From the IMG/VR virus record IMGVR_UViG_3300035501_000922: DNA of 64,000 nucleotides. One strand, given 5' to 3'. Position numbers and translations under genes: made by a program. This document shows positions 6,225-23,488 of the stretch, piece after piece. How positions within the stretch are numbered: position 1 is the stretch's first letter; each line of letters starts with the position of its first letter. Source of the stretch: a virus (taxonomy: Duplodnaviria > Caudoviricetes). Under the pieces are notes generated by a model. It did not search any database. It saw only the letters and a program-made list of their open reading frames with translations, and was not told the origin of the DNA.

Positions 6225-8264
6225 ATGGAACAACTAGAGAGGATACCTAAGAAAAAATTATTATCTGTAAAAGATATAAAAATGAAACCATTGAAAATTA
6301 AGTTTGATATAACCACATTGAATATGATTATATCATTTATTTATAAAGATAGTGTACTAAGAACAAGAAAAACACTATCTAATATTTATAAGCTTTTTAA
6401 TAATCTTGATGAAAGCATTTATGAAGACGACCCAACGTTGTTTGGAAGAGTCTGGATCATACAAAAAACACTATATGGAAAGCTAATTGATGGATTTGAG
6501 AATGATGATAACTTAAAACAATATTGTCTTGATGATATAGAGTGTGATGAATTCAGAGCAACAACGTTAAAAAATATCTTAGAAACAAAGAAAATCTCAC
6601 ATGATGAATCTAAGTATCTCATTAAAAAAATTGATGATACATTAGAATTTGGATATACTGTTACAGTTAAAGATATAATGAAACAGATTCTAAATTCTAT
6701 AGATGATGGGGATTTTAAATCATATAAAGCAGTAAGTGAAGATTTGTATAATATTGCGACTTCTGTTATTAATATCAAACGTAATACATCAAGTTTGGGT
6801 TCAGATCAAACATTCTCACTTAGTGATGAACAGTTTGATGCTGTTATTGAAGATGCAGTACAGAAGTTAAAAGATAGAAATAGAATATTCATCACAGGTA
6901 TACAAAGATGGAATACGATATTAGCACCGGGATATTTAAGCAAAAGATTATATACATATCTTGCATTTCCCGGAAAAGGTAAATCAACTATTTTACTTAA
7001 ATCTGCAATGGATATTCGTAAATATAATAAAGGGATTAAAACAAAAGATCCTGATAAAAGACCTGCTGTATTATTCTTAACCCTTGAAAATGATATCCCT
7101 GAAACTATTGAGCGTATTTATAATATGTGTGTCGATAGCGATGATATTCGTAATTATTCGCCTAAACAAATAAAGAAAAAGATGAGAGAAAAAGGTGGAT
7201 TAAAACTAAGTGATGATGATAACATCGACATTATCATTCAAGAATATAAAAACAGGGAATTAGATACAAATGATTTGTATACAATAATTAATGATTTAGC
7301 AGATGAAGGAATTGAAGTTATTACTTTAATTGTAGACTACATGAAAAGAATTAGACCAGCTGAAAGAGCTGATAGTGAAAAGACTGAGCTGAAGAATATT
7401 ACCAATGAATTAAAAGAAATAGCAAAGTATTTCGATATTTGTGTTATTTCAGCTCAACAGCTTAATCGTGTTGGTGCTAGTGTAGTAGATGCGGCTTTAC
7501 AGGCTAAAAAAGAAGATGTTACACGATTAGTTGGTAGAGATGCCATAAGTGGAGCATGGGAGATTAAAGTTTATCAATGGTCTCCCCATATAGTAATATA
7601 TGAAAAAAAAACTGTTTTAATTGCTGGAAACTCTTGTTAGGTCTTAGATACCAAAGTGTGATAATTCTAAGAATAGAGACAATCAGCAGCCAAGACTCTT
7701 TATAAGAGTAAGGTTCAACGACTATCGAAAGCATAACTTAAGAGAAATACTTAAGTGAAGAAGTGAGTAGAGTACATTATTTATATAGTGGAAACAAACA
7801 GCTCTTTATATTTGGTAATAGAATATAAAGATGAAGATATAGTCTAAACTTTGCTGAGAAGTAAAGATATACATAATAAATATAATTTATGCATTGAGAA
7901 CAGCGATTTTGTATGTATTATTAACCCTGAGGTTAAGTCTGATACAAATGAATTATTTTTAACTTTTAAAATGCTTAAAAGAAGATACAGGTCTTCGGAA
8001 GAAAATGAGAAACTTAGAAGACTTGAATATTTCAATCATCCGTTTGAACCTAATAATGAAATTAGATTATTAGATGACATAGATTTACCTAGACCTTTAT
8101 CATTGGAATCTCTTAGTACACAATTTGAAGCAATAGATGATAAGCGAGGAAAAGAGAATGCAATCAATAGAGAAGTTAAGGATAAGAAGAAAAAGAAAAC
8201 TTATGTAGAAAATGATTATGATGATTTTGAGCCTTTTGATTTTGAAAAGACATCTAATTATTAA
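6225..8264 (+). CDS. dnaB: DnaB-like replicative helicase, spliced (exons 6225-7564 and 7892-8264, 570 aa)
   Basis: Walker A AFPGKGKS, Walker B IVDY, SAQQLNR motif; removing the intron restores ...GAWEIIENSDF... in frame. Confidence 0.9.
7565..7891 (+). ncRNA. Group I self-splicing intron (IA-like, no ORF) in dnaB
   Basis: P AATTGCTGGAAA, Q AATCAGCAGC, R TCAACGACTA, S AAGATATAGTCT; P1 GGGAGAU/GUCUCCC with U.G; P10 UCAAUG/CAUUGA; terminal G at 7891. Confidence 0.93.
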
Positions 8265-16705: not shown

Positions 16706-19700
16706 TTATAATAACATGTCATCGACATTAATTTGTTGTGTATGTACAGTAGCATCATGGAATTTTTTCATTCCAAGACGTTTAGTAGTTTCTGCAGGTT
16801 TGGAACATAATAATCCAATATTCCTCTTACCAAGTTTGTAATAGAAATCACCTGCACATTTATTGCAAAGATGTTTTTCTTTTCCAACTCCTATACAATA
16901 CATAGGACTTCTTAGTTTTACAACCTTACCAGCATATTTAGTTATTACATCGGGAGTTAAACAAATAAGTTTACCCTTTTCTATAATATATCTATATAAG
17001 AAATCGTCATATCCTTTATTAGGAATTGTTATAGATAGATATCCAGTTGTGCCACAATCAGAACCTTCATCAGCTAATGTTTCAGATTGCATTGCTGAAA
17101 TAAGTTCTTTAGATAAGTAACCGGATACTTGTGTACCGTAATATTATTCATATAGGTTAGTTACTCCTATATCTGTTTATACAGCTATATGTCTCCATAT
17201 AGATTGGACTATATCTTACTTATATATTCTATTACCAAATATATAAGCCCATGCACTTCCACTCTACTTAGAGTGTACTCTACTCACTTACTCACTTAGA
17301 TATTTCTTCTAAGCTATGTTTTCGATAGTCTCTGAACGTTCTTCCATAAAGAAGCTTCGCTGCGGATTGTCTCTATTCTTAACATTATTACTATACCTTG
17401 GACGTTACTCCTTGCCACTATTATATTACTATCTTAGTTTAGTAGTTAAGACTTTTTAAATTAAAGTTATAGTTATTAACTTTAATTTATGAGATATTCC
17501 CGCAATTCACATGGTCAGACAGCCGGGTTACACGTGACTGCCTTCGGATAGGCACCGGATAAGATGGCATTTGAATGTGGAGCTATATCTTTTTTCTCAA
17601 GACCATCAAGTAATGATGCCGTCAGAACATCAAACTCACCGGTCATATTATTTTTAATAGCACCTCTCATTAAGTACATATTCTTATAGTTATTACCAAT
17701 AGAACCACGAGCACCTGAAACGTATAAGTCCATACCTATATCGTCTTTAAGAACTTCTTTTGTTTTTGCAACAAGTTCTTTCTCCATTTGTTCTGATGCT
17801 TTAGGGTCATTATTGGCTAACTCATCTTTATATTTTACTAAAAGTTCTTTCTTAAGTTTTTTTACTTCAGGAGGAACTTTTAAAACTTTTGCAGTAAATG
17901 ATGTTGTTATAACTGAGTGAAGCTGTAATCCTAACCAGTCTCTCATATCAACATACTTATACATTTGCTCAACAGTCATTTTATCTTCATATAATGCTTT
18001 TGCTACAGTTTTTTCTACTTTACCAAATCCACCATCATCTAATACATAATTTACATATCCGATAATCTCCTGTAAGCCAATTTCTTCAACCATTAATCTA
18101 TTAAAAATAAATCGACCAAGAGTTGTTTTAGTTGGCTCTTTAACTAGAGGATATTCGGATGGTGTTAAAGTGAGTATATCAGTGGGATGGTGCTTAGCAG
18201 TTACCGCTTTAGTTGGTTTATTCTTTTCATCTTTTGACATATCTACAAGATTACCAAACCAATCAACTAACATTGAGAAAGTTATTTCTTCAGGTTTTAA
18301 AGATAAGAAATACTGTTTATCTTGAGAAGATAAAACTTTAGCATTAGGTTTAGGTTCTTTTGTAAGAGTATAAAAAGTCTGAATTACTTCGTTTTCTACC
18401 TTACGAATATTCTTACCTGATGCATTTATAAAATATGATTTTGAATTCATTGCTTTACGACATTCTTCATTTGCTTCCTGTGTAAATACAATTTTTACTG
18501 TTGTCTGATCTCCATCATAGTCACCGTCTAATCCTGGAAGATATGAGTTACTAAATTGAACTGAATCAATAAACTTAGTAGCCATCTTTGTGGGTGGAAC
18601 GGAAAAATCAATATGAGGATAGTTTTCATATACTTTACCGTTAAATGATACAACTTCAGTTTCTGTTGTTGAAGTAACCCTAATTTCAGCTAAGAAGATT
18701 CCAAATTCATCAAGCAGAGGATAACGAGTTACTAAACAGAATTTATCTTTGGTTACATCAACAGCAGCCATATATAAAAGGTCTGTCCATGTCATATATC
18801 TAGAAGCAATTGAAGAAATTTCAGAACGATTAGTTGGGTCTATACGTTTACCTGTAAAACCTAAATAGAACTTCCTATCAGAACCAACTACAGGAATTTC
18901 AATTTTATTGAAACGTGATTCTGGGTCTTTTACGTATGTATCAATCATTTTCTTAAAATACTTTTCAGTAAAATAAGATTCAGGGTCTGCTAGTCGTAAA
19001 TTATCTTTAGCAGTATCAGATACTGGATTATAAAGAATTTTAGATAGCTGAGAATCTATAACTTCTCTTTCAAAGAAAGTTCTAACCCAATGCATAATGA
19101 ATGGATAACATAAACTACAAATTTGAGAAATAGGTAAAGCTGCATGACGAAAATCTGTTACCATTTGGTCAGGTCTATCAGCATGGAAAGTCGGTGCTGT
19201 AATGACCGTTCTTGTACAATAGTCTACGTTTCGTCCTAAGAGATACTTACGAAGTAATCCCTGCTTTTTCTCAAGCTTTGTTTTAAAATAATCGTATATT
19301 TCAACCAGAGTATTCTGAATATTATAATTAGTGGCACTAAACTGAAAATCAAACATATCTCTATCTTTTATTAATCCAGCATTGCGAATTAATCTACTAT
19401 ACAATTGGTTTATACTTCCGGTTTCACCACTACCACTCTTAGAATAAGTTACATCACGATAAAACGCTGGAATAACTAAGCAGTAATGAATAAAAATTTC
19501 ATTCTTCTTAGTTTTTGTAATAAGGTCAATACGCTCATTACGCATTCCTGTTTCGTCAGCATATTCCCACTTAATCTTTTCCCAGTTATTATAGATAAAT
19601 TCTAGTCCAGTCTCACCGTTTTCATCAGGAACTAACTTTCCAGTTTTATCAATAGAGTAATACTCTTCACCATTGACAATCTTCTCGATGTTACGATAAA

Positions 19701-19923
19701 GACGTTTAAGAACTTTATATATATGAGGATGAATAAAATACGAATGAAGATCAATATATGCAAAAGTTTCTTTTCTTGATTTAGTAGTTATTCCAAATAT
19801 TTCATTTGATATTAAGCCATTTGGATGGGGTATTCCACCTCTTTGAAATAGAATACCTGAAGTGACTTCTTGAAGATGGTTTAATTCAATAAACTCTTTA
19901 ATATCAAATAAATCTATTTTCAT
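16706..19923 (-). CDS. Phage RNA polymerase beta' subunit (virion RNAP-like), spliced (exons 19923-17537 and 17138-16706, 939 aa)
   Basis: GRNVDYCTRTVI, TRYP, catalytic DGDYDGD, SGARG; splicing gives bridge-helix AYPKAVGTQVSGYLSK, then DCGT, LRSPMYC, CNKCAG, MKKFH; late-type promoter at 19946-19957. Confidence 0.88.
17139..17536 (-). ncRNA. Group I intron (IA-like, no ORF) in RNAP beta', apparent 3'-terminal A
   Basis: P AATTGCGGGAA, Q AATCCGCAGC, R TCAGAGACTA, S AAGATATAGTCC; P1 AGGCAGU/GCUGUCU; 3' boundary inferred from frame, P10 and P9.0. Confidence 0.88.
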
Positions 19924-20024: not shown

Positions 20025-20696
20025 CTAATCATCTGTTGTTTCACTTTGTGCTTTTTTGCTACGTGTAGTTTTTTTCTTTTGGGGTTTCGGGGGTTCATGA
20101 GGTAATTTTCTCAGTTCTTCCATTAAATTTGCTATAAATGAGTCACCATTTTCTTGAAGGTAACGTTCATATCTGCGTTCAACTGCTTGTAGTACATATA
20201 CCTCAATATATCCCCGATATATCGCATTATAGTATTCAATTGTTATAAAAGAACAATTGCTTTCCTTGTCAGATTCAATCATCATAATAACATTGTCTCT
20301 GACAGCGTCAATCTTTAAATCGATTTGATCATTCTTTGATTCATAGCTTTCGAGTCTTTTAGACAATGCCCTATCATTTTCTTCGCTTGTTTGACGTATT
20401 TCCTGGACCGAGGATGAGACAGACTCAATTTTATTATTCAGTTCTGAAATATCTGAACGAATTTCGTCTTTCATATTTTTCACATCATCAGCTAAATTGA
20501 GCATTTGCGTTCTAAACTCAGCATCAGTTTCATCTGTCTGTGTTTTCTTAACAATCTCTAAATCGTGTTCTTCAATTTTTTTTCTTAACTTTTTATAACA
20601 CACAAGTATTGCACCGCCACAAACACAAATAACCGATACTGCTATTCCGAGTCCAGGAAGGATTGAATTTAAAAAGTTAACAAATGTACTTTCCAT
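20025..20696 (-). CDS. Membrane-anchored coiled-coil protein (holin-like)
   Basis: N-terminal TM helix, coiled coil, C-terminal YERYLQENGDSFI..LMEEL motif; late-type promoter at 20739-20750. Confidence 0.45.
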   Translation of the reverse strand: MESTFVNFLNSILPGLGIAVSVICVCGGAILVCYKKLRKKIEEHDLEIVKKTQTDETDAEFRTQMLNLADDVKNMKDEIRSDISELNNKIESVSSSVQEIRQTSEENDRALSKRLESYESKNDQIDLKIDAVRDNVIMMIESDKESNCSFITIEYYNAIYRGYIEVYVLQAVERRYERYLQENGDSFIANLMEELRKLPHEPPKPQKKKTTRSKKAQSETTDD

Positions 20697-20773: not shown

Positions 20774-20856
20774 AAGAATTTTAGGTAATTTTCAACATTT
20801 TTGTCCTTCGTTTTAAAAATAGGATGCATTGACATAACTCAATGCATCCTATTTTT
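20774..20856 (+). ncRNA. Candidate small RNA C (late-type promoter to terminator)
   Basis: AACA-N6-TA at 20763-20774; terminator ~20816-20856; no ORF; pyrimidine-rich 5' part. Confidence 0.25.
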
Positions 20857-23488
20857 AATTTCTTTCAACATGAATAAAATTAGCTAATTCATATTTATGG
20901 TCTTTTTCATCATGGGAAAAATCTAAGTCAATAATATCAACTGGATATGATGAAAACATATCATTGTGAGTAATTAGAAAACTCTGTTCAGAGCCAATTC
21001 TCTCAATCTGGTTTTCAAGTATCTTAATAAACTTCTCTCTATTTTTTGTATCAAGTGGTCCATCTATTTCATCCAATAACATGATGTTATATTTGGATAA
21101 TGTTTGTGACGCAAGTCCAAATGACAATGCAATAGATAAAAAGCTGATTTCACCTTGAGATGCATACTTTACATCTCTAATTAATTTTCCTCTATTATAA
21201 AAAGGAATAGTAAATTCAGTTGGTGTGATTTTAAAGTTATCTATATAGATTTGACCATCATATGCTATGTCTAATAATTCATTTGTTATTTCTTCAGTAT
21301 TTCCAAGATAGCTTTTGATATAATAAAGAGACATACCTTTTTTAGATGATAAAGCTTCTTTTGTTAGTGTCATCTCATCAAATTTAACATAATAATTTTC
21401 AAGCTCTTTGTTTATCATATCATATTGAGTTAGTTTTGATGACAGCTCAGTAATCTTTTGATTAAGATTATCTATGGTCATTTTTGATTTATGAATTTCT
21501 AACTCTGTATTTTTAATAAGTTCACGATTTCGTCTGTATAACTCATACTCATCACTTAAAGTCTCAACTTCTTTTTCTATCTTATCATGAAGTTCAAATG
21601 TTTCCTTAAGCTCAGTATATGTTTCAAGACTATTTTCATATTCTTTATTTTTTTCAGTTAATGATGAAATTAACATCTTGAGTGATGATATCTTAGATTG
21701 GAACTCTTCAATTTGTTCTTTAGTATTTTCTATCTGCTCAGTTAAATATGACATATTTGAAATTCTTGAATATCTTTCAATATCCTTTTCAATAAAACTA
21801 CTGTTATCTTTAAGAGTAAGATAGTCATTATATTCTGTTACTAATGACATTAAATAGTTCATATCTTTTTCGTTATAAATTCTTTGCAGATTACCTATTG
21901 CATCATAAAGAGTATTAACAGAAAAAGAATTCTTTATATTATCAGGTAGTTTTTCGATTAATGATTTATATGGTGCAAAAGATAAAAGAACATCTCTTAT
22001 ATTCTTATATGCATATTCCATGTCTTTATAAAAAGAAAGGTCTTTCTTCTTTTCTTTTTCAACCTGATTAGTTTCTAGCAGATTTCCTACTTGTTTCCAT
22101 AATTGTCTAGCTTCACAGGTATCATTTGTACAACCATTAAAAACTGATGAAGATGAGAAATCAAAACGTTGGGAAACTGTTCTTAAAAATAACATTTGTG
22201 TATCTTCGCTTTCATCCATATTCATAATGTGTGTATTGATATACTGCATAGCATTACGATTTTCTTTTAATAAAGATATAATTTTCTTTATGGGTGATTT
22301 GCCAAATTCATAAGTTTTATCTAAAATCTGCTGTGTATTTTTTATAAAAACATAGAAATCATCAAATTCTGATTTAGTATAATCAGGGCTAAATCCACCA
22401 AGATTATCTTCAGCTTCACCAATCTTAACCGATAGCTTCCTGTGTTCTTCAAGCATATCATGAAGTTCTTTTTCACTTTTCTCTTCTTTATCATATTGGA
22501 CTTCAAAACTTCGTAATTGTTCTTGAAGCTGATTTAACATAGTTAAATGATTCTGAATAAGTATCTCAGATGATTCAATCTGAGTCTGTGCTTGGATGGA
22601 TAGCTTTTCTAGCTCTTGTATTTTTTCAGCGTAATACTCACTATCTGTAGATTCTAGCGACTCAGTATTTTCTAGTATCTTATTCATCTTATTCAGTTTC
22701 TTAACCGATGTTGAAAGTCTTTCTTTAAGAGTATCACAGTTCTCGATTTTAGAGATTTCAAATTCATATACTGAAATCAGTTTAGATAATTCACTATACT
22801 GCTCTTGCTGAAACTCTCTTTCAGATTCTAATAAATTAAGTTCATGAGTCACATCTTTTCTTTCAGTAATTCCTAATCTCTTGAGCTTATCTATATCATG
22901 AGAAATCATCTCTTTTAACTGATGTAGGTCATTATTTACTTTTTTATAGTAAGTTAAAAATATACCAATCTCATCAAGTAATTTACTCATGAATGTTTTT
23001 CTTTCAGTTTCTGATAAATCTATCATAGACGTTACATTACTGCCAATTCTAATAAGTTTCAAGTAATCAGGTTCTATACCCAATTCCTCTTTAATATATT
23101 CCTTGAACGACGTGACATTACCATTTACATTCAATTCATTATCATTTTTCATAATGTATGATTTAACACTATGGTTCTTATCTTTATGAGGAGTATAAAA
23201 ATGCTTAATGATATAATAATCATTATCATTTCGTATATGTATTTCTTTATATCCATCTTTATTTTCTAGTATCAGGTTTAAATTATCTCTCACATCGAGA
23301 TTTCCTAATCCTGCAAATGGATTTAATAAACTTAACAAACTGGTTTTGCCCGACCCGTTAGGTCCTATAAGCAAACATATTTTATTCATAGCTGTAGTAA
23401 AGTCAATTGTAATTTCATGAGAATTCATTGCATTACTTACAGCTGCAAAATTTCTTAGAATAATCTTTTCTATTTTCATTTTTATCAA
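20855..23488 (-). CDS. SbcC/Rad50-like SMC ATPase (T4 gp46-like recombination nuclease subunit)
   Basis: GPNGSGKT Walker A, long coiled coil with central C-x4-C, ASQGE signature, LLDEIDGPLD, LITH. Confidence 0.9.
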   Translation of the reverse strand: MIKMKIEKIILRNFAAVSNAMNSHEITIDFTTAMNKICLLIGPNGSGKTSLLSLLNPFAGLGNLDVRDNLNLILENKDGYKEIHIRNDNDYYIIKHFYTPHKDKNHSVKSYIMKNDNELNVNGNVTSFKEYIKEELGIEPDYLKLIRIGSNVTSMIDLSETERKTFMSKLLDEIGIFLTYYKKVNNDLHQLKEMISHDIDKLKRLGITERKDVTHELNLLESEREFQQEQYSELSKLISVYEFEISKIENCDTLKERLSTSVKKLNKMNKILENTESLESTDSEYYAEKIQELEKLSIQAQTQIESSEILIQNHLTMLNQLQEQLRSFEVQYDKEEKSEKELHDMLEEHRKLSVKIGEAEDNLGGFSPDYTKSEFDDFYVFIKNTQQILDKTYEFGKSPIKKIISLLKENRNAMQYINTHIMNMDESEDTQMLFLRTVSQRFDFSSSSVFNGCTNDTCEARQLWKQVGNLLETNQVEKEKKKDLSFYKDMEYAYKNIRDVLLSFAPYKSLIEKLPDNIKNSFSVNTLYDAIGNLQRIYNEKDMNYLMSLVTEYNDYLTLKDNSSFIEKDIERYSRISNMSYLTEQIENTKEQIEEFQSKISSLKMLISSLTEKNKEYENSLETYTELKETFELHDKIEKEVETLSDEYELYRRNRELIKNTELEIHKSKMTIDNLNQKITELSSKLTQYDMINKELENYYVKFDEMTLTKEALSSKKGMSLYYIKSYLGNTEEITNELLDIAYDGQIYIDNFKITPTEFTIPFYNRGKLIRDVKYASQGEISFLSIALSFGLASQTLSKYNIMLLDEIDGPLDTKNREKFIKILENQIERIGSEQSFLITHNDMFSSYPVDIIDLDFSHDEKDHKYELANFIHVERN

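Follow-up and report, generated by a model that had tools for sequence, protein, structure and literature searches.

Known group I introns and the window intron

Group I introns are described as ending in a universally conserved guanosine (omega-G), which occupies the P7 pocket of the guanosine cofactor in the second splicing step, and phage introns of the IA2 type, such as those of T4 td and nrdB, do end in omega-G. Natural exceptions with adenosine in its place (omega-A) are very few, and none from a phage was found in the literature. The intron described here is such an exception. It interrupts the gene for the beta' subunit of a jumbo-phage multisubunit RNA polymerase (RNAP) in the window, the 64,000-nucleotide stretch of DNA that was analysed from the IMG/VR virus record IMGVR_UViG_3300035501_000922 (Duplodnaviria; Caudoviricetes). 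The source record is a metagenome-assembled fragment of 85.7 kb, approximately 36% complete, with an expected phage of approximately 240 kb. All coordinates are window positions unless another source is named, and the beta' gene, its intron and both exons are on the minus strand.

The 23S ribosomal RNA (rRNA) intron Cbu.L1917 of Coxiella burnetii, the subject of Raghavan et al. 2007, reportedly still splices with a non-canonical terminal nucleotide. It shares with the window intron the bacterial type of group I intron and a terminal nucleotide other than omega-G, but its host gene encodes rRNA and it stands as an isolated case, whereas the window intron has omega-A and omega-G relatives at its own site. 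The hexacoral mitochondrial intron ND5-717 also has omega-A; RNA-seq data are consistent with accurate ligation of its exons, and its authors suggest that omega-A limits hydrolysis at the 3′ splice site and circularisation (PMC8146996). ND5-717 resembles the window intron in having omega-A within a protein-coding host gene, but it is organellar, strictly vertical in its inheritance, giant, occupied by host genes in P8 and probably dependent on host factors, whereas the window intron is a compact phage intron of 398 nucleotides from a family that includes members with open reading frames (ORFs). A preliminary description of this DNA, made from its sequence alone, had called omega-A rare on the strength of these two introns; omega-A is on record for ND5-717 (PMC8146996) and, by the title of Raghavan et al. 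2007 (J Bacteriol 189:6572, cited in PMC5423948), for Cbu.L1917. The window intron ends at a junction that is fixed independently of its terminal A, here by 86 homologous proteins, 107 intron-less loci and the P1 and P10 pairings, and it adds to the rare, already known omega-A group I introns.

Introns with homing endonucleases are also carried by the RNAP genes of AR9/PBS1. In PhiPA3, a group I intron with the HNH endonuclease gp210 is located in the beta gene of the jumbo-phage virion RNA polymerase (PMC11620839). Both the PhiPA3 intron and the window intron are jumbo-phage group I introns that split the gene for a multisubunit RNAP subunit at a highly conserved codon of the catalytic site, but the former interrupts beta and the latter the bridge helix of beta', without an endonuclease ORF and with a terminal A. 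The core R and S elements and the P3-P8 architecture of the window intron are those of phage IA2 introns (T4 td/nrdB, Staphylococcus Twort/K-like, Enterococcus, Vibrio ICP1), whereas its family has a P5 extension and a P9 domain of its own.

The reading favoured here, to which we assign a probability of roughly three in four, is that the window intron (17139-17536) is a genuine group I intron with omega-A, and that its exons are ligated after A17139, at a 3′ splice site placed by P10 and P9.0. An exception in an essential phage gene, accompanied by many close same-site relatives that keep G, constitutes a natural comparison series, which could address ligation after A with an unchanged G-binding pair and the effects of omega-A on rate, hydrolysis and circularisation.

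The host gene and the exon junction

Exon 1 (17537-19923) consists of 795 codons and the GU of a split valine codon, ending in ...GAYPKA (...HSNAILSGAYPKA), and contains DGDYDGDQ, a catalytic motif of the DxDGD type found in multisubunit RNAP beta'. Its profile matches are to the jumbo-phage RNA polymerase families phrog_2986 (3.3e-100) and phrog_2962 (9.1e-40); the match to Pfam RNA_pol_Rpb1_2 is weak (17.6 bits versus a cut-off of 25.3). By tblastn, jumbo phages of Fusobacterium, Bacillus (AR9/PBS1), Listeria and Staphylococcus have annotated beta' genes that match exon 1 with 29-38% identity; a DNA-level search of phage records returned matches to the intron core only and no close relative of the exons. 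Exon 2 (16706-17138) supplies the third valine base and 143 codons (GTQVSGYLSKEL...DDMLL), with the stop codon at 16706-16708; the frame from 17137 translates as GTQVSGYLSKELISAMQ... over these 143 codons until the stop. The profile phrog_2962 spans the junction, exon 1 ending at profile position 291 and exon 2 matching positions 297-431, and P, K, A, V and G exactly account for the five positions between the two matches. Both exons are intact, without any other lesion. The insertion is in phase 2 of the valine codon of ...GAYPKA-V-GTQVSGY..., the bridge-helix segment of a jumbo-phage multisubunit RNAP beta'.

A protein search with the tail of exon 1 returned 120 homologs, of which 86 span the junction. 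All 86 conform to the pattern G-x-[YLF]-[PA]-[KE]-x-x-x-T-x-x-[ST]-G, in which three residues separate K/E from T, and some (e.g. P0004, P0016, P0029) read exactly GAYPKAVGTQVSGY; a spacing of two residues occurs in none of the 86. At the DNA level, 163 loci were taken, the tail of exon 1 alone having given five loci and the alignment of exon 2 having given 80 and 64. Of these, 107 loci are intron-less and represent 86 distinct contexts; in every one of them a single codon separates ..PKA from GT.., and a shorter spacing was found in none of the 107. The mature messenger RNA (mRNA) must therefore read ...AAG GCA GUN GGU ACA..., and since the 5′ splice site follows U17537, the 3′ exon must start at C17138, leaving A17139 as the last base of the intron. 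From C17138, exon 2 reads V-GTQVSGYLSKEL... in frame. The preliminary description had proposed this exon start from the spacing of KAVGTQVSGY and had advised a comparison with intron-less homologs, which now supports the terminal A at all 107 loci, in agreement with the 86 proteins.

It had also been said that splicing after the first nearby G would shift the frame and splicing after the second would delete one residue, and the frames from both guanosines agree: a junction after G17137 leads to a stop nine codons on, and a junction after G17136 loses the glycine and yields KAVTQVSGY, in frame and one residue short. Intron callers that assume a terminal G would accordingly mis-join the beta' gene in one of these two ways, by a frameshift or by a one-residue deletion. 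When both splice sites were displaced together by -2 to +1 nucleotides, no combination joined an in-frame, full-length product to an intron ending in G; the displaced pairs end the intron in U or C (e.g. KAYGT, KADGT), and the +1 pair, which gives an identical mRNA, would need its 5′ splice site to follow C17536 and its last intron base to be C. An intron ending at the upstream G17149 reads into a stop codon. The exon junction and the terminal A17139 are demonstrated by these results. The coordinates, splice sites and frames of the preliminary description are thus confirmed throughout, and its omega-A reading is now backed more strongly than before, by intron-less homologs, by homologous introns at the same site and by covariation of P1 and P10.

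Identity and guide pairings of the intron

The window intron has a phage IA2-like core and contains neither an ORF nor an endonuclease gene. The Rfam group I covariance model RF00028 matches 17185-17625 of the minus strand with 63.5 bits (E 8.9e-14; gathering score 50), and the intron scores 58.3 bits in a search of its own genome with the same model. By blastn, its core is 70-81% identical to introns of Staphylococcus, Enterococcus and Vibrio phages. Together with the covariance score, the intron has a P1 with a U.G wobble, the P7 G-C pair, a P10 and a P9.0; of the features that define group I introns, it is the 3′-terminal guanosine that is absent, the base being A17139. It is a genuine and probably functional group I intron that lost, or never had, a homing-endonuclease ORF.

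The 5′ splice site had been placed after GCAGU by the U.G pair of P1, and this assignment stands: the 5′-exon strand AGGCAGU (17537-17543) forms a 7-base-pair P1, found by script, with the internal guide sequence GCUGUCU (17517-17523), and the splice-site nucleotide U17537 wobbles with G17523. P1 of at least 5 base pairs (bp) was found in 18 of the 21 relatives tested, and it covaries with the exon across same-site introns (GGCUGU/GCAGCC, GGCGGU/GCCGCC, AGCCGU/GCGGCU, GUCCGU/GCGGAC, GGGCGU/GCGUCC).

At the 3′ splice site, the two pairings that had been predicted, P10 and P9.0, are both present. The P10 guide GUGUA(AC)CCG (17524-17533), directly 5′ of the P1 guide, pairs with exon-2 nucleotides 17138-17131 (CGGUACAC) in two parts: CCG (17526-17524) with CGG (17138-17136), abutting P1, and, beyond a 2-nucleotide bulge, GUGUA (17533-17529) with UACAC (17135-17131). 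P9.0 is formed by AAU of J7/9 (17203-17205) and AUU (17142-17140), which directly precedes A17139; it has counterparts in relatives, such as AAAC/GUUU in L100. Of the 18 relatives in which this P1 was found, 13 have a P10 that abuts P1, runs uninterrupted for 4-7 bp and is the longest or equal longest at the 3′ splice site defined by homology; L013 (6 bp) and L111 (4 bp), both with omega-A, are among the 13. The P10 of the window intron (3 bp, a 2-nucleotide bulge and 5 bp) is also the longest or equal longest at its homology-defined 3′ splice site.

The terminal nucleotide of same-site introns

Many of the homologous ORFs end in ...PKAV followed by unrelated residues, and the DNA at these points contains group I introns in the same codon phase; some ORFs stop earlier (...GAYP, ...GA). 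The complete, distinct same-site introns number 21 and range from 231 to 1289 nucleotides. Several of the long ones contain an ORF of approximately 260-290 amino acids, mostly in P6, with one weak match to Pfam HNH_3. The omega nucleotide (17139 in the window) is G in 16 of the 21, with ends such as ...AAUAUUG, ...AAAAUUG, ...AUAAUG and ...GAGUUUG, and A in five: the window intron (...AUUA), L013, L111, L027 and L028. The base homologous to A17139 is thus G in 16 of the 20 other complete introns, and all four introns known from their 3′ parts only (L102, L109, L132, L135) also end in G; L054 and L148, whose junctions are uncertain, were omitted from these counts. The A-ending introns come from different samples, in host proteins approximately 44-60% identical to that of the window, and one of them, L013, has an internal ORF of 261 amino acids. 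A further contig, L098, matches the window with 100% identity across 4688 nucleotides, A17139 among them. Given several same-site introns with A, omega-A seems to be tolerated at the beta' site.

The intron of L116, which has a terminal G (3′ end at approximately 1288), lies 2 nucleotides upstream, and its exon 2 begins GUU GGU ACA; the insertion point within the valine codon therefore varies among relatives. In L027, L028 and L114 (the A-ending lineage with an intron of approximately 1288 nucleotides), a large insert is located 5′ of P4, with the P4 anchor at approximately nucleotide 944, whereas the inserts of other long introns are in P6. These three introns have a candidate P1 guide, GCGGCU, at approximately nucleotide 925, and no P1 was found near their 5′ ends.

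A phylogeny was computed from the segment between the R element and the intron end minus the last three bases, which provides approximately 210 columns; the alignment is short and the tree mostly unresolved. The window intron is sister to the omega-G intron L102 with support of 98/95. At least two switches between G and A are required by the well-supported branches, and three by the best tree. The possibility that omega-A arose only once was considered: the first tree was unresolved in this respect, and with L102 and L109 added, the window intron pairs with L102, while a tree that unites all A-ending introns in one clade is marginally rejected by the approximately unbiased (AU) test (p = 0.043). 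As a rough estimate from these alignments, omega-A would have originated two or three times. The tail after P9b is 11 nucleotides long in the window intron, L013 and L111, versus 14-24 nucleotides in G-ending relatives with P9b, and the G could therefore have been lost through a small deletion at the intron end just as plausibly as through a point substitution.

A broader view, to which we give somewhat less than an even chance, is that the terminal nucleotide is labile among the approximately 25 same-site introns, with at least two to three switches, that omega-G is not strictly needed for exon ligation in so compact a scaffold, and that the altered P7 of the window intron possibly compensates by readjusting the nucleotide pocket. 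Natural introns that are nearly isogenic but differ in omega (the window intron versus L102, L100 or L109) would open the omega requirement to direct tests.

P7 and the G-binding site

The 5′ strand of P7, GAGACUA (17326-17332), contains G17330 of the G-binding G-C pair, the bulged A17331 and G17332 of the closing pair, within the R element GUUCAGAGACUAUCG. The 3′ strand, UAGUCC (17206-17211), provides C17207, which pairs with G17330, and C17206, which pairs with G17332. The preliminary description had called this P7 canonical. With R and S elements of GUUCAGAGACUAUCG and GAUAUAGUCC, the G-binding pair G17330-C17207 is indeed intact, but the adjacent layer differs from those of all 24 relatives. 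Across all family members the S element GAUAUAGUC and the P7 G-C pair are invariant; the base after the S element is C in the window intron only and U in all others, and the R element of all relatives is GUUCAACGACUAUCG or a near variant. Alone of the 25 family members, the window intron has GUUCAGAGACUA...UAGUCC, whereas the other 24 have GUUCAACGACUA...UAGUCU. When the P7 strands are compared (GAGACUA/UAGUCC versus ACGACUA/UAGUCU in relatives), the closing pair, by a compensated change, is G-C where relatives have A-U, and the bulged base is A instead of C.

In ribozyme structures, this layer of P7, adjacent to the G-binding pair, is stacked immediately beneath the guanosine that is bound there. 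The change in this layer of the window intron may be a compensation linked to omega-A. It is seen with the window intron only and does not accompany omega-A in the other introns; therefore it is not required for omega-A. An intron in the helicase gene of the same phage, described below, keeps the family-typical P7 elements. No compensating change common to all omega-A introns was found, their P7 G-C pair and S element being the same as in omega-G relatives, and in the same-site family comparison the P10 and P9.0 of omega-A introns are not longer than those of omega-G relatives. The only trait common to the omega-A introns of the window, L013 and L111 is the 11-nucleotide tail after P9b.

Splicing after A17139 and its alternatives

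If the window intron splices as proposed, the first step would be standard, with exogenous G attacking after U17537 inside the U.G pair of P1. In the second step, the 3′ splice site would be placed by P10 (17524-17533 with 17138-17131, abutting P1) together with P9.0 (AAU/AUU), and ligation after A17139 would produce KAVGT despite the terminal A, with the G-C binding pair of P7 unchanged. We infer that ligation is accurate because the beta' gene is essential, the spacing in homologs is invariant and omega-A persists in several diverged same-site introns. By analogy, ligation is probably slower than in omega-G relatives, and hydrolysis at the 3′ splice site and circularisation may be reduced. 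Omega-A recurs in other lineages, at least one of which (L013) has an internal ORF, and this suggests that it is simply tolerated and is not a device dedicated to regulation.

Several points weigh against ligation after A17139. The change of omega-G to A in the Tetrahymena ribozyme severely impairs exon ligation, and for the window intron accurate ligation at A17139 is a prediction from sequence. All of the sequences are metagenome assemblies, and L098 may share, or be linked to, the sample of the window record. Moreover, the strongest run of the window P10, GUGUA/UACAC, starts at U17135, exactly where the exon would start if G17136 were omega.

The last of these points belongs to an alternative in which G17136, downstream in the exon, docks in P7 as omega, so that the junction is GCAGU/UACAC and the beta' subunit contains KAVTQVSGY, either alone or mixed with the full-length protein. 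The product would be in frame, and the same in-frame option is open to every omega-A relative, since the 3′ exons of all family members begin N-G-G; in model ribozymes, mutants of omega-G activate nearby cryptic G sites. However, neither the 86 homologous proteins nor the 107 intron-less loci include a single case of the short spacing that would result, and the loss of one residue from an alpha-helical bridge helix would shift the register of the conserved T..SGY. The pairings do not favour G17136 either: its P10 would sit 5 nucleotides from P1, the CG that precedes it cannot form P9.0, and the contiguous P10 of L013 and L111 includes the CGG. On balance, use of G17136 is unlikely.

The preliminary description had itself inferred that slow or alternative second-step splicing could throttle an essential RNAP subunit. 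In such a scenario, omega-A would be an adaptive regulator, with a slow or condition-dependent second step limiting or timing the production of beta'. The recurrence of omega-A in the family and the unique remodelling of P7 beside the G-binding pair that accompanies it in the window intron are compatible with regulation, and a regulatory role of intron retention has been suggested for ND5-717 (PMC6545197). Nevertheless, G is retained by about three quarters of the same-site introns, whose phages have the same gene organisation, the P7 change is absent from the other omega-A introns, the P7 of the sister intron that this phage carries in its helicase gene is family-typical, and neutral tolerance explains the recurrence equally well. 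We consider a regulatory function about as improbable as the use of G17136.

That A17139 is an error or a recent deleterious mutation (an assembly artefact, a minority allele, or a defective intron in a non-viable or decaying genome) is highly improbable: although the source is a metagenome assembly that is only about 36% complete and the window intron, having no homing endonuclease, could not be restored by homing on its own, L098 is identical over 4.7 kb including the A, four diverged introns from other samples also have A, and the exons, the core, P1, P10 and P9.0 are all intact.

Other group I introns and neighbouring genes

A second ORF-less group I intron of the window, at 7563-7866 on the plus strand (RF00028, 74.2 bits), splits a DnaB-like helicase gene with exon ORFs at 6225-7640 and 7851-8264 (phrog_19, 2e-30). 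It was missed by the whole-window Rfam scan at the gathering threshold and was recovered by the own-genome search and a local rescan. It is of the same family as the beta' intron (GGUUCAACGACUAUCG / GAUAUAGUCUAAAC) and probably has a terminal G (...UUUAUG). Four further group I introns, scoring 84-96 bits, are located on the minus strand of the same 85.7-kb record beyond the window (74654-74924, 76909-77176, 77263-77599 and 83789-84057), two of them only about 90 nucleotides apart. The total is six group I introns within approximately 36% of a jumbo-phage genome.

Some of the beta' homologs (P0023, P0027, P0039, P0041, P0066, P0074 and P0105) are approximately 1163-1168 amino acids long, which is approximately 225 residues above the usual 930-945; the additional residues lie past the junction region and may represent a fusion, an insert resembling an intein or an extension of the C terminus. 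An ORF of 877 amino acids (20855-23488, minus strand), located two genes upstream of beta' in the window, matches an SbcC-like nuclease subunit (phrog_77, 3.8e-59) and is separated from the beta' gene by an ORF of 223 amino acids at 20025-20696. The SbcC-like neighbour is also found in the relatives L008, L009, L011 and L099.

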